Shown: in pieces, positions 6,419 through 60,270 of the stretch
Numbering within the stretch: position 1 is the first letter of the stretch
Layout of the letters: each line of letters starts with the position of its first letter
DNA from: an uncultured Verrucomicrobiae bacterium
GTDB lineage: Bacteria > Chlamydiota > Chlamydiia > Chlamydiales > Rhabdochlamydiaceae
Reading direction: 5' to 3'
DNA: 64,000 bases
NCBI GenBank assembly: GCA_963818965.1
Contig: CAWFUG010000012.1
Coordinates: 1-64,000, forward strand
The notes under the pieces: generated by a model
The model's database searches: none
What the model was told of the DNA's origin: nothing
The model's input: the letters and a program-made list of their open reading frames with translations, nothing else
Translations under genes and position numbers: made by a program

Positions 6419-6475
6419 TATACCCCGGGGCTTTGACGCGGCTCAAATGCACCCTTCCTAAGCGCGCGGGGTATA
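6419..6475. mobile_element. Core-family MITE, type I terminus (short form)
   Basis: TATACCCCGGGGCTTTGACGCGGCTCAAATGCACCCTTCCTAAGCGCGCGGGGTATA; near-identical to 19922 and 51518. Confidence 0.8.
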
Positions 6476-6498
6476 AACATCAATCGATAAGGATTTAA

Positions 6499-7518
6499 AT
6501 GAATCACAAAAATCGATTCATCGTGTTTTCTTCCGTGCTGGTTTTTTTATTTTCAGGTTTTTTAGTTGCTGGAAATGATGAAGATATTGCGAAAAAATAT
6601 GGATTATCTATTGGTAAATACCTCTGCTCTGCCGAAGAAAAAGTATACATCAAGAATTGGCACCATCCGTCTCTTCGCGATTACTGGAGAATACAAAAAT
6701 ATCTGACGGGCGCCCCCCGCCCTGAATTGCAATATCTAAATTCTCCAGGAGTCCCATTCAGGATGGACAGAATACGCAATTTCTGTCTCATTACTACTGA
6801 AACACAACCCACAGTTGAGATCATCCCTATCAATGGAGATTTTTCTAATAAAAAAAACTGCATTGTAACCTACGTTTCCATCAATGATCACTACATTAGG
6901 AGACAAAAAGAACTTATCCAAAGGCTACGACTAGTCGGATTTGATGGTCATGTGATTCAAAGAATCGGTGGATGGCCTGCCACTGAAATGGGCACATTGA
7001 AATTTTTTGATGTTCCTTACGCCTTTAAAATTTGCGCATTACTAGAAGCAAAAAATTTGGGTTATCAAAATTGTTTATGGCTAGATGCTTACATGGTGCC
7101 ATTGACTGACATGCGCCCCCTATTCGACCATATCGCAGAACAAGGGGTGTTTTTGTACTACGATCCCAATTGGCCTATGGAAGGCTATATTCAACCGTTT
7201 GCCATTGAGTCTTTTGGCAAATCGCTTACAGACTTTTTACAAGGGCCCGCTGTGAGTGCCTTTGCTGTCGGCGTCAACTTTTCTCACGAAAGAGGTATTC
7301 AGTTATTCGACTCTTGGTACAACATGATGGCGACTCAAAGGCTTGGATTCCTATCCTTCGTTCCCGAACAAGCGGCCCTGTGCGTTCTTGTCGATCGTTT
7401 AGGATTAGTTCCGTACCTAGGCAATCCAAAGTTTGTAAACTTTGGATGCAACTCCGATCAGATTACATCTGATGCAAATATCTGCTGGGACCGCTTTAGT
7501 AAAACCTATGGCCCTTAA
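6499..7518 (+). CDS. Exported putative glycosyltransferase-like protein, paralog 2
   Basis: 339 aa, colinear with 4080..5099; signal-like N-terminus. Confidence 0.6.
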   Translation: MNHKNRFIVFSSVLVFLFSGFLVAGNDEDIAKKYGLSIGKYLCSAEEKVYIKNWHHPSLRDYWRIQKYLTGAPRPELQYLNSPGVPFRMDRIRNFCLITTETQPTVEIIPINGDFSNKKNCIVTYVSINDHYIRRQKELIQRLRLVGFDGHVIQRIGGWPATEMGTLKFFDVPYAFKICALLEAKNLGYQNCLWLDAYMVPLTDMRPLFDHIAEQGVFLYYDPNWPMEGYIQPFAIESFGKSLTDFLQGPAVSAFAVGVNFSHERGIQLFDSWYNMMATQRLGFLSFVPEQAALCVLVDRLGLVPYLGNPKFVNFGCNSDQITSDANICWDRFSKTYGP

Positions 7519-8653
7519 AGTTCGATTCACTGCGTTTACTATGTACCGCGCCCGATCAGGAATTGCGAATTTGAGCTTTCGATCGTGGAATCGCGGGGCT
7601 TTGACGGGCTCAAATTCGCAATTCCTAACCGGGCGCGGTATACCCAAGTGGACTCAAAGTTGGGTATACCTACTAATGTGTTTATTTTCTGTTTCTTTGA
7701 TCGCAGGAAACGATGAAGATATTGCGAAAAAATATGGATTATCTATTGGTAAATACCTCTGCTCTACCGAAGAAAAAGTATACATCAAGAATTGGCACCA
7801 TCCCTCTATTCGCGATTACTGGAGAATACAAAAGTATCTGACGGACGCCCCCCGCCCTGAATTGCAGTATCTAAATTGTCCAGGAACCACATTCAGGGCT
7901 GACAGAATGCGCAATTTTCGTCTTATTTCTCAGGAAAGAAAACCTCTATTTGAAATAATCCCCCTCAATGGAGATCCTTCTGATAAAACAAACTGCATTG
8001 TAACCTATGTTTCCATTGACGATGGATATATTATCAGACAAAAAGAACTCATCCAAAGGCTACGAGACCTCGGATTTAATGGGCATGTGATTCAAAGAGT
8101 CGGTGGATGGCCCGCCACTGAAATGGGAACATTAAAATTTTTTGATATTCCTTACGCCTTTAAAATTTGCGCATTGTTAGAGGCAAAAAGCTTGGGTTAT
8201 CAAAACTGTTTATGGCTAGATTCTTACATGGTACCATTGACTGATATGCGTTCCTTATTCGACCATATCACGGAACAGGGGATATTTTTGCCTTATAGTC
8301 CCACCAGCGACTGGAGAAATCACATCCAATCATTTGCCACTGAGTCTTTCGGCAGATCCCTTTCCGATTTTTTACAAGGATGTGGTGTCAGTGCCATGAT
8401 TGTCGGCATCAACTTTTCTCACGAAAGAGGTGTTCAGTTATTCGACTCTTGGTACAATATGCTGGCTACCCAAAGGCTCGGGTTCCTATCCTTCATTCCT
8501 GAACAAGCAGCCCTGTGCGTTCTTGTCGATCGTTTAGGACTGGGTCCGTACGTAGGCAATCTAAAGTTTATAGGCCTTGGATGCAACCCCAATCAGATTA
8601 CATCTGATGTAAATGTATGCTGGGACCGCCCTACTCTAACGTATGGTCCCTAA
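7508..8653 (+). CDS. Exported putative glycosyltransferase-like protein, paralog 3, with a 42-aa repeat-derived insert in its signal peptide
   Basis: ATG 7508 gives MALKVRFTAFTM-[42 aa]-LLMCLFSVSLIAG, aligning with MLHKIRSTVFAA-LLMCLFSVSLVAG of paralog 1. Confidence 0.6.
   Translation: MALKVRFTAFTMYRARSGIANLSFRSWNRGALTGSNSQFLTGRGIPKWTQSWVYLLMCLFSVSLIAGNDEDIAKKYGLSIGKYLCSTEEKVYIKNWHHPSIRDYWRIQKYLTDAPRPELQYLNCPGTTFRADRMRNFRLISQERKPLFEIIPLNGDPSDKTNCIVTYVSIDDGYIIRQKELIQRLRDLGFNGHVIQRVGGWPATEMGTLKFFDIPYAFKICALLEAKSLGYQNCLWLDSYMVPLTDMRSLFDHITEQGIFLPYSPTSDWRNHIQSFATESFGRSLSDFLQGCGVSAMIVGINFSHERGVQLFDSWYNMLATQRLGFLSFIPEQAALCVLVDRLGLGPYVGNLKFIGLGCNPNQITSDVNVCWDRPTLTYGP
7542..7668. mobile_element. Stacked MITEs: core-family type II hairpin (7542-7642) plus short family A (7639-7668)
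   Basis: Arms TACCGCGCCCG..AGGAATTGCGAATTTGAGC / GCTCAAATTCGCAATTCCT..CGGGCGCGGTA around the core; shares TATA with the adjoining TATACCCAAGTGGACTCAAAGTTGGGTATA. Confidence 0.85.
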
Positions 8654-8815
8654 GAGTCTGTCTACAATCTCGGACGTTTTGATTTTTGATGGATTTTGGT
8701 TTTGGCTTGGGTTCGATTCCGCAGGACATAGTTAAATTAACCAGGCCAAGGAATCGAACCCAAGCCACAACCAAAAGGCGCGAAAAGCAAAATGTCCGAG
8801 ATTGTAGACAGACTC
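8654..8815. mobile_element. 162-bp MITE (family C), IS5-like ends, TAA target duplication
   Basis: Perfect 22-bp TIR GAGTCTGTCTACAATCTCGGAC; TAA on both sides; inner IR TGGCTTGGGTTCGATTCC; paralogous empty site at 5097. Confidence 0.9.
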
Positions 8816-8851
8816 TAAACCTCAACTTTTGAACTTATTAGGAATGAAAAG

Positions 8852-9970
8852 ATGAAGTGGTTAATTTGCACGTTATATTTGATTCAAACTCTGCAAGCAG
8901 ACTTATTTAGAAGAGTGGAAGAATTTGAAATAACATCTCCTTACACCCGTAGAACGGTAGGATATGAGTCACATGACCTAGATCTCATTTCTCGCATTAT
9001 TTCGTCCTACCAATTAGCTGAAAAAGAACACCTGGGTGATTCGATGTGGCAGCTTTTTTTCGACTGGAGCCACACGGGCATTCACGGCACCTTTATAGCA
9101 GGTGATTTGAATGCCTGTGCTGCCATTCTGCGCAATCCAAAAGAAAGCGATCTGTTTTATGGATTCGATAGCTTATGTGCAAGTATACTTCCTTCTCATC
9201 TGAATTATGACTCGCTCGTTGCCTTGGGTCATAGTAACTTCGATTTACTCGTGCGCTTCGGCGAGGCGATTTCTGCGATCAGACTAGATAACCCTGAAAC
9301 CTACGCAAATCCTACGTGTTTACGAAAGTGGAAGATTTCTGATGTTTTAGACAAGATAGAGAGCAAATTAGGGGTGCAAATTTTTTTCCCTAATCCATAC
9401 GAAGACGAAATCGGAATTTGGACACCACATGGAGTCGCATCAAACAGGGCCTTAGCTGCACTCCATCAAGCCTATTTAATCAAAGAGCTATTAAAAGGAA
9501 TCGAGAACCCTCGGGTTCTTGAAATTGGTGCAGGGCTGGGGAGAACGGCCTATTATGCTCGAACCTTTGGAATCAAAGACTATACGATCATCGACATTCC
9601 AATAACCAATCTCAGCCAAGCCTATTTCTTAGGAAAGGTTTTGGGTGATGATCAAATCGCTCTGCTTGGGGAACCTCAGCAGCGAGATAAAATTAAGATA
9701 TTGACCCCAGATCAATTTCTGAACGATAAAGAACAATATTATGATCTTATTATCAATGTCGACTCATTGACGGAAATGAATACGGCAACCATGCAAGCAT
9801 ATATTGAAAAAATTTCCCAATCCACAGCGCTATTTGTATCCATTAACCATGAATGGAACACCCATACAGTGGGAGATCTCGCTCTGAAGTGCACCCATTT
9901 AGAGTCTTGTCAGAGGACTCCTCATTGGATGCGTCAAGGGTATGCGCAGGAAATTTACAAGTTCAAGTGA
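8852..9970 (+). CDS. Putative sugar O-methyltransferase with signal-like N-terminus
   Basis: VLEIGAGLGRTAY SAM-binding motif, YTIIDIP, YDLIINVDSLTEM; N-terminus MKWLICTLYLIQTLQA. Confidence 0.75.
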   Translation: MKWLICTLYLIQTLQADLFRRVEEFEITSPYTRRTVGYESHDLDLISRIISSYQLAEKEHLGDSMWQLFFDWSHTGIHGTFIAGDLNACAAILRNPKESDLFYGFDSLCASILPSHLNYDSLVALGHSNFDLLVRFGEAISAIRLDNPETYANPTCLRKWKISDVLDKIESKLGVQIFFPNPYEDEIGIWTPHGVASNRALAALHQAYLIKELLKGIENPRVLEIGAGLGRTAYYARTFGIKDYTIIDIPITNLSQAYFLGKVLGDDQIALLGEPQQRDKIKILTPDQFLNDKEQYYDLIINVDSLTEMNTATMQAYIEKISQSTALFVSINHEWNTHTVGDLALKCTHLESCQRTPHWMRQGYAQEIYKFK

Positions 9971-59933: not shown

Positions 59934-59962
59934 GTCCTCCCCTAAATAAAATTTTAATTATC

Positions 59963-59993
59963 TACGCCCAACTTTTCAGCTCATTTGGGCAGA
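59963..59993 (-). repeat. Degenerate short family A element
   Basis: Reverse complement TCTGCCCAAATGAGCTGAAAAGTTGGGCGTA versus TATACCCAAGTGGACTCAAAAGTTGGGTATA. Confidence 0.5.
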
Positions 59994-60074
59994 CATAGCT
60001 CTGAGAGGAGTTTTTTTAATAAGAACTCTAGATCAATATGTTACATTACACCTCAGACATGTTTACTATTTAAA

Positions 60075-60103
60075 TTGACATATAGTGTAATATAAACTAT
60101 AAC
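60075..60103 (+). promoter_or_regulatory. Near-consensus sigma66/70 promoter
   Basis: TTGACA-N17-TATAAC, followed by GGAG and ATG 60147. Confidence 0.7.
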
Positions 60104-60190
60104 ATAACTAAAAAGCGAAAAATCGCTTCTAAAAACGGAGATTTATATGTTACCCGTAGCAAGAACACCCCCAACTCCGCAACCAGGGGA

Positions 60191-60270
60191 AATACTACCC
60201 TCATTTCCGATCGTCGAACCCCGGGGCTTTGACATGGCCCAATCCCGATTCTTGAGTCACGTTCGGTATA
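60191..60270 (-). mobile_element. Core-family type III half element encoding the GT9 C-terminus
   Basis: Minus strand TATACCGAACGTGACTCAAGAATCGGG-ATTGGGCCATGTCAAAGCCCCGGGGTTCGACGATCGGAAATGAGGGTAGTATT. Confidence 0.88.

Follow-up and report, generated by a model that had tools for sequence, protein, structure and literature searches.

Eight loci of the window belong to one palindromic repeat family

The DNA analysed here is a stretch of 64,000 nucleotides from an uncultured bacterium of the Rhabdochlamydiaceae (assembly GCA_963818965.1, contig CAWFUG010000012.1, positions 1 to 64,000; hereafter the window). Eight of its loci, starting at 6419, 7542, 19922, 47355, 47546, 51518, 57624 and 60191, had been read from the letters alone, in what we call the original prediction, as one family of palindromic elements that joins a conserved core to different 27-nt termini. 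We found that they belong to a real, large family of palindromic MITEs (miniature transposable elements with inverted repeats) of the IS630 type, with exchangeable ends on a common core; the proposed swapping of terminal inverted repeats (TIRs) is partly supported. A hidden Markov model (HMM) built from the element arms matched 8/8 window loci, in agreement with a single family. At E <= 0.01, this arm HMM gave 195 arm hits in 133 loci of the source assembly (2.24 Mb, 12 contigs, 87.85% complete), a copy number far above chance expectation. Fifty of the 133 loci were two-armed and at least 140 nt long, mostly 167 nt, which is the modal element length. Blastn with seven window copies as queries returned 131 merged loci, 41 of them of 136 nt or more. 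We also observed that contig C4 of the assembly equals its reverse complement nearly throughout and shares an overlap with the end of C12, and that contigs C5 and C6 duplicate portions of C12 at 94-99.8% identity; this redundancy may represent assembly artefacts, strain variants or segmental duplications, and the copy counts are therefore perhaps slightly inflated. The elements show the generic features of bacterial MITEs, being short, numerous and non-coding, with terminal inverted repeats and a target duplication.

The window copy at 57624-57790 is indeed the full two-armed 167-bp form that had been proposed. It is a near-perfect palindrome with a DNA fold of -77.4 kcal/mol, compared with -17.9 kcal/mol for shuffles (z = -20), and it runs from the TATAC end through the 27-nt terminus, an ATTTGG motif, a box (GTCAAAG on one arm and GTGAAAG on the other) and a stem to a GTATT/ATAC tip helix with a 7-nt loop. 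The arm was then described from 41 full copies, namely the 42 of the 50 two-armed loci with a length of 163-172 nt, minus one segmental duplicate, with each arm aligned over 82 columns. The TATAC end was near-invariant (155/160 termini in the source genome; mean column entropy 0.07 bits) and the following columns 6-27 formed the most variable segment (mean entropy 1.21 bits). Columns 28-56, which comprise ATTTGRGC, the box and CCCGSG, were best conserved (0.50 bits at columns 48-56), and the GTATT tip had an entropy of 0.00 bits; the loop lies beyond it. The proposed pattern of variable ends on a fixed interior therefore holds for the core, but not for the stem between core and tip, where columns 57-76 vary by subfamily (0.78 bits).

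The spacing of end and core was as predicted. In the window, the ATT(T/G)G motif begins 27 nt from the TA end in all copies that keep a terminus, and in the whole source genome, counting from the initial T up to the T that is invariant in ATTTG gave 30 residues in 154/159 arms and 29 in the other 5; among arms of other genomes the count was 30 in 115/141, 29 in 25 and 31 in 1. The sorting of termini into five types, in contrast, did not survive, as we obtained at least 11 terminus clusters in the source genome, partly chained via intermediate and mosaic forms (such as C9:453805 and C9:277437). No indels are needed to align the terminus types, all of which have TATAC, G13 and an A-run at columns 20-21 in common. 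There was no clean gap in their pairwise distances, and single linkage at <=4/22 differences merged types I and II. The continuous gradient of drift against which the original prediction had set its reading was thus found in part, with intermediates linking types I and II and conserved positions common to all. The copies found in the window are listed in Table 1.

Table 1. Copies and derivatives of the palindromic family in the window (column numbers refer to the aligned arm)
Feature	Position	Strand or basis
Short end-only derivative ('family A'); 24-nt arms of TATACCCAAGTGGACTC terminus type, 11-nt loop, core-less	313..371	inverted repeat
57-nt internal-deletion derivative, terminus type I; one arm to column 55, CCCCG microhomology junction with the other terminus	6419..6475	-
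101-nt two-armed derivative, terminus type II; tip and part of inner stem deleted	7542..7642	inverted repeat, arm HMM
30-nt end-only mini element, TATACCCAAGTGGACTC type; adjoins the 7542..7642 element, TATA common to both; missed by the arm HMM	7639..7668	
About 53-57-nt internal-deletion derivative, terminus type I'; one end decayed to GTACA	19922..19978	-
76-nt two-armed derivative, terminus type III (TATACCGAACGTGACTCAAGAA); one box copy retained as loop; 26-nt arms, 100% complementary	47355..47430	
Terminus type V (TAATACCAATC...) copy; complete arm, tip and ~15 nt of the second arm; arm HMM columns 15-82	47549..47646	-
Single arm, terminus type I; HMM columns 1-67 aligned, family sequence stops near column 55	51518..51582	+
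Full-length 167-nt element, terminus type IV; full-length structure-model match	57624..57790	+
Single complete arm, terminus type III, columns 1-82, stops at tip	60191..60270	-

What had been set apart as a 'core-less family A' turned out to be a short derivative of a subfamily, since copies with this terminus type elsewhere in the source genome are full-length and carry the core. In addition, a heptosyltransferase-like open reading frame at 60201..61199 on the minus strand takes its last ~23 codons from the single-arm element at 60191-60270.

Insertion of the elements duplicates a TA target

The element at C12:76253-76419 consists of TA, 163 nt and TA, and a ~95%-identical stretch of C5 has a single TA at this place (...CATTTAAGC...), which shows that insertion takes place at TA and that this TA is duplicated. 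The AroA gene carries a 55-residue in-frame insert that is missing from 5/5 aligned orthologues, and its 165 nt equal 163 + 2, therefore supporting the TA duplication. The empty paralogous site and the AroA insert both agree with the predicted nature of the repeats as TA-duplicating MITEs of the IS630 kind. In-frame inserts of 55 residues were also found in an rRNA methyltransferase-like gene and in one unnamed gene, and full copies had on average 2.39 open frames out of 6, compared with 1.27 in random genomic 167-mers and 0.54 in shuffles. The bases just outside the termini are T-rich, with 49% T at position -1. Two identical 170-nt copies and one single-base variant occupy three different sites, indicating recent movement. 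The same-genus genome G001 provided no empty site for the 57.6-kb element, the corresponding region being ~70% identical and not syntenic.

One group of termini matches the ends of an IS630-family transposon

Among the genomes of the same bacterial family, we identified in genome G088 a DDE_3 element of 1155 bp (L292:190-1344) with perfect 27-nt terminal repeats and a broken reading frame. Its ends agreed with MITE termini at 20/22 variable positions for an element of G056 and at 18/22 for an arm of the source genome, and 0/500 shuffles reached either value. Similarly, a broken DDE_3 gene in G056 abuts a TATAC terminus which matches a source-genome arm at 18/22 positions (0/500 shuffles). The end of an element in G076 was marginally similar to window type IV (14/22; 5/500 shuffles), and that of an element in G077 to types I and II (13/22; 15/500 and 28/500 shuffles), while no terminus was found to match the element ends of G067 or G051. 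These comparisons support, for one related group of termini, that the 27-nt outer segment is a transposon end. Since TATAC and the 22-nt stretch then correspond to an IS630-family TIR, this segment is predicted to be most likely a transposase-binding site.

More generally, the ends of IS630-family elements in sister genomes start with TATAC, TATAG or CTAGT. The IS630-family element L101 (G062:C1:396649-398063) has an open frame of 413 residues and terminal repeats of 106 nt that are 100% complementary, and long-armed parents therefore exist in the group. In G082, an intact IS630-family transposase with an open frame of 363 residues was seen. An initial test of termini against the G076, G067 and G051 ends had given a best value of 14/23, within the null distribution (mean 12.8, maximum 16), and was superseded by the wider set of ends.

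Several IS630-family elements lie next to MITE-like sequences. L099 (G076:C21:1-2541) and L107 (G067:C16) sit exactly in TA between outward MITE-like ends (...GGGGTATA / IS / TATACCCC...), and in G076 a different 180-nt TATAC-ended MITE is present on both sides of the insertion sequence (IS). At L102 (G052:C42:1214-1392), a core-bearing copy with CTAGTGCTC-type ends lies ~20 nt past the stop of an IS630-family transposase gene at the contig start.

Other transposons of the source genome were considered as movers. A 1.2-kb IS4-like DDE_Tnp_1 element is present in 3 copies (C1:260607, C2:149485 and C9:457884) with CTTTGTAC ends and 9-bp duplications, a fourth and different DDE_Tnp_1 match lies at C9:267355, and an IS110-family element has 2 copies (C2:48810-50536 and C9:448489-450216). 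The IS4-like and IS110 elements were rejected, as their ends and targets are unrelated to the palindromic family; searched with the arm HMM, the DDE_Tnp_1 and IS110 loci yielded no more than a single weak match (E 0.043), next to an IS4-like copy.

Outer and inner modules occur in different combinations

In the source genome, terminus cluster T2 is combined with interior C4 in 13 arms and with interior C5 in 7, and terminus cluster T11 with C4 in 4 arms and with C5 in 3; in all, interior C4 is combined with seven terminus clusters. Comparison between genomes gave 154 pairs with similar ends and unlike interiors, and 711 of the reverse kind, the latter being a soft number since few positions are free in the interior. 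The core was, in other genomes, also found with non-TATAC ends, of the AGTGCTC-, AGTAC- and TTAACTCGA- types. Conversely, G088 carries both the IS described above and a 164-nt element which is flanked by the IS's own end and has a quite different interior. Terminus lineages recur across several genera, the CGAACGTGACTCAA type occurring in 6 genomes. Taken together, the sequences support reassortment of outer and inner modules; the core with unrelated ends, the same end on another interior and the T2/T11 by C4/C5 combinations all speak for the proposed backbone that swaps its TIRs.

Hybrid copies with unlike arms were found at C8:186941-187108, C1:229797-229966 and C9:261390-261535, with 30 arm mismatches in the first and 19 in the second. 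Such copies are probably scars left where elements at different sites recombined, i.e. scars of rearrangements. Short forms keep both termini and the same junctions recur among them: we counted twelve end-only forms of 45-47 nt, four 84-nt forms with identical junctions and about eight of 92-97 nt, and two-ended type I derivatives of 53 to 57 nt exist outside the window (57 nt at C1:47962 and 56 nt at C11:365147). Their junctions lie at short direct repeats, and the halves and mini elements of the window are of these kinds. Judging from the multiplication of the 47-nt end-only forms, the core is probably dispensable for movement; alternatively, such forms may have arisen by recurrent deletion in place.

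Two further ideas were discarded. Homogenisation of the inner stem within each genome was not borne out, as pairs with different ends differed at 6.2/17 positions in the same genome and at 6.6 between genomes. An apparently slower evolution of ends within lineages was circular, the pairs having been picked by end similarity.

The arms co-vary around a conserved asymmetry

At variable columns, at least 73% of elements had their two arms alike, and at most of these columns the share was 93-100%. With RNAalifold, 34/55 predicted pairs had changes on both sides. In a separate comparison, 96.5% of cells were paired, compared with 81.5% in shuffles. The covariation score was 0.446, compared with 0.167 in shuffles (0/500 reached the observed value) and 0.06-0.11 when partners were slid. 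Relative to the nearest neighbour of each copy, we counted 98 symmetric and 78 one-arm changes, 35 of the latter coming from two hybrid copies.

At three columns the arms nearly always differ, invariably by a complementary transversion: column 41 (C versus G in 30/41 elements, and A versus C in 7 more), column 52 (C versus G in 31/41) and column 77 (A versus T in 34/41). In addition, one of the arms carries two extra bases, at columns 36 and 47, which form one-base bulges, so that the irregularities at columns 36, 41, 47 and 52 are spaced 5-6 nt apart. In 89 elements from 29 other genomes, column 41 was C/G in 87, the column-47 extra base was present in 81 and column 52 was C/G in 62; as these 89 were taken from the top-scoring matches to a model that derives from asymmetric copies, such counts in relatives are biased upward. 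Columns 52 and 41 were in fixed phase in 59/61 elements of other genomes. The tip (column 77 and loop) was found in both orientations relative to the box (15 versus 11), and tip flips of this kind would result from inversion between arms. The remaining mismatches, with the two hybrids and a duplicate excluded, were mostly transitions (22 G.T and 39 A.C of 77 on the box-defined strand).

Avoidance of stop codons was rejected as the cause of the box asymmetry: the asymmetry does confine both TGA codons of the box to a single frame of one strand (positions 40 and 127), and the other two sites are left unaccounted for. Two direct-repeat binding sites per arm, as in IR/DR-like elements, were likewise rejected, since the local score of an arm's own end against its own inner stem was 5.3, compared with 5.6 in shuffles. 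A more speculative reading, which we consider doubtful though worth stating, is that the lopsided, conserved core may stand as a module of its own and take up the TIRs of different IS630-family transposons time and again, one backbone parasitising several transposases, and that some factor may read its fixed irregularities, in folded DNA or RNA, as a structure-specific recognition surface. The idea of a recognition surface draws on the two bulged bases on one arm and the C.C and G.G mismatches about one helical turn apart, which are kept across at least 29 genomes amid covarying surroundings.

The family is distributed among environmental chlamydiae

A covariance model built from the 41 full copies found full-length matches (163-168 nt) in 36/60 other genomes of the same bacterial family, which the analysis took to be probably the Parachlamydiaceae. 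Genomes G007, G056 and G075 are heavy carriers. An exact search for the box motif hit genome bins labelled Chlamydiae, Parachlamydiaceae, Parachlamydiales, Rhabdochlamydiaceae and Protochlamydia, and some that submitters had labelled otherwise. Among sequencing runs, one DNA run contained a 0.10 share of the words, in contigs only, and no RNA run was listed. No Rfam family matched the elements at gathering score, the only matches in the window being two tRNAs. Full-text literature searches, judged by title or the start of the abstract, gave no paper on such repeats in Chlamydiae, and a 2024 review of MITEs (PMC10969869) contains no word starting with 'chlamyd'.

The window holds two other kinds of palindromic repeat. 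An element of ~164 nt at 8653-8816, unrelated to the family, has 34-nt outer arms and inner arms with GGGTTCGATTCC, a sequence resembling a tRNA T-arm. Repeats of CCACAGAGAG units with arms of 28-42 nt lie at 45613-45731, 47436-47523 and 26104-26168, and one copy of this type sits between two elements of the studied family.

Transposon-derived elements with exchanged modules as the probable explanation of the family

We consider it quite probable that the repeats are an old, diversified family of non-coding, almost fully palindromic, TA-duplicating MITEs of environmental chlamydiae, with IS630-type ends, moved in trans and with their modules exchanged. The arm would consist of five parts, namely TATAC, the 22-nt variable stretch, the core (ATTTGRGC, box and CCCGSG), a fast-evolving and co-changing stem, and the GTATT/AATAC tip with its flipping loop. 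IS630-type transposases recognising the outer module would mobilise the copies in trans. The occurrence of one core with many ends could reflect module exchange between subfamilies and with other IS630-ended elements, most plausibly by recombination or gene conversion ending in the conserved core, and the halves and mini elements could have arisen by deletions at short direct repeats which the hairpin brings together.

Several observations weigh against this explanation. The original suggestion that the 27-mers are TIRs of different IS630-family elements held for one related terminus group, but in the 46 DDE_3 loci inspected no cognate element turned up for types I, II, III and V. Neither the family model nor the transposase piece of G056 found a DDE_3 match in the source genome, whose assembly is 87.85% complete; mariner Transposase_1, rve and Y1_Tnp were also absent from searches of this genome, which is weak evidence in the case of Transposase_1, as that model matched no control genome. 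Across the 60 other genomes, DDE_3 was present in 12/36 element-bearing and 7/24 element-free genomes and thus showed no association with the elements, and the one-contig genome G023 (14 hits) and the three-contig genome G049 (26 hits) have elements without a DDE_3 match. The two transposon copies whose ends match are both broken. Finally, binding of a transposase at the ends explains neither the complementarity of the arms over 80 nt nor the persistence of the three mismatches.

The 27-mers might instead owe their variety to drift alone, starting from a single ancestral end, with conversion inside the palindrome keeping the arms alike, no swapping and no link between terminus and transposase. 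The indel-free alignment with positions common to all terminus types, the missing distance gap that joins types I and II, the mosaic termini and the fact that cognate transposons are known for one terminus group only are what this account predicts or allows, yet we think it unlikely: the same terminus lineages, such as CGAACGTGACTCAA in 6 genomes, occur in several genera, one lineage equals a real IS end, and all four combinations of T2 and T11 with C4 and C5 are present. The core is, moreover, found with ends that are not alignable to TATAC termini, and a transposon end is found on an element with another interior.

The covariation of the arms (34/55 pairs; 0.446 versus 0.167) bears on a different explanation, in which the elements move or act as folded single strands, like the REPIN-RAYT system, the ends of IS200/IS605 or integron attC sites, so that an enzyme reads the irregularities of the hairpin and the TATAC ends are cleavage sites only. 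The excess of symmetric over one-arm changes (98 versus 78) and the conservation of the irregularities (column 41 in 87/89 elements of 29 other genomes) fit such a reading, and REPINs too show compensatory hairpin changes, as described in a part of PMC3116915. We nevertheless regard it as distinctly unlikely. Duplication of TA is a hallmark of double-strand cut-and-paste by a DDE enzyme, Y1_Tnp was not found in the source genome, and the outer module corresponds to an IS630-family terminal repeat. The 47-nt end-only forms have multiplied without the irregular core, the two phases of the tip mismatch (15 versus 11) indicate that box and tip are not read jointly, and the counts in relatives carry the bias of a model made from asymmetric copies. 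A hairpin of this size could also serve the host at the RNA level, as a terminator, an RNase III site or a small RNA in transcripts, with mobility being secondary. Here the RNA fold (-127.9 kcal/mol, z = -21.6), the conservation of the core across genera and the Correia hairpins of Neisseria mRNA, which passages of PMC2649163 and PMC10969869 give as RNase III substrates, have to be set against 22 G.T and 39 A.C mismatches outside the conserved sites, which indicate that wobble is not tolerated on the box-defined strand, against copies in both orientations and within reading frames, and against the Rfam result. We hold such a role to be very improbable, and the RNA scaffold suggested in the original prediction, with no wobble preference and nothing in Rfam to match it, finds no backing.

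Relation to known repeats and significance

Judging from descriptions, the closest described analogue of the chlamydial MITEs is the neisserial Correia element (CREE). CREE termini begin with TATAG and its duplicated target is TA. Passages of PMC2649163 and PMC10969869 describe CREE as having a 26-bp terminal repeat of which two end variants exist, a core with a direction, and length classes due to deletion, and in those of PMC2649163 its mode of mobilisation is given as undetermined. In the parts of these sources that deal with CREE, the likeness extends to a short TIR that occurs in several end variants (26 bp in CREE and 27 nt in the chlamydial family), duplication of the target, a directional core, deletion length classes, hairpin potential and many transposase-less copies. 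CREE is known only from Neisseria according to a passage of PMC2649163, and the chlamydial family, which comes from another host phylum and was likened to it by description, is regarded as an analogue and not a member. The chlamydial elements differ in having at least 11 end clusters in one genome and non-TATAC classes elsewhere, in being palindromic as a whole, with co-varying arms and conserved mismatches and bulges, and in that a cognate IS630-family element was identified for one end class. The RUP elements of pneumococcus, which are IS630-derived MITEs, duplicate TA, have ends matching an IS630-family IS and move in trans. TA duplication and matching ends are common to both, but the cognate transposase of the chlamydial elements was not found in the source genome and its presence does not follow that of the elements across genomes, and their interior is common to elements with different ends.

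Rickettsia palindromic elements (RPE) are repeats of ~150 nt that lie in frame within genes and add a peptide, according to a part of PMC10969869. The in-frame 55-residue inserts in chlamydial genes resemble them, but RPE belong to another phylum and to families that are unrelated by description, and for the chlamydial elements TA duplication and IS630-type ends were shown. REPINs, as far as described in a part of PMC3116915, are hairpin doublets that are conserved in some parts and variable in others, with changes that compensate each other across the hairpin. They are linked to a single-copy Y1 transposase, whereas PF01797 (Y1_Tnp) was not found in the source genome. REPINs are not known to make a target duplication, whereas the chlamydial elements duplicate TA.

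As a rule, a MITE is defined by its ends, and in many cases its partner is not known. In the present family, the ends lend themselves to being read as a distinct module that can be exchanged. One end class is tied to a real IS630-family element, and the core persists across many genera of environmental chlamydiae. In practical terms, the family provides in-frame copies in housekeeping genes and hybrids as markers of recombination, and it will confound the annotation and assembly of chlamydial metagenome bins. It also opens a way to study how non-autonomous elements switch between transposases, how the symmetry of long palindromes is maintained in bacteria and why some mismatches escape it.

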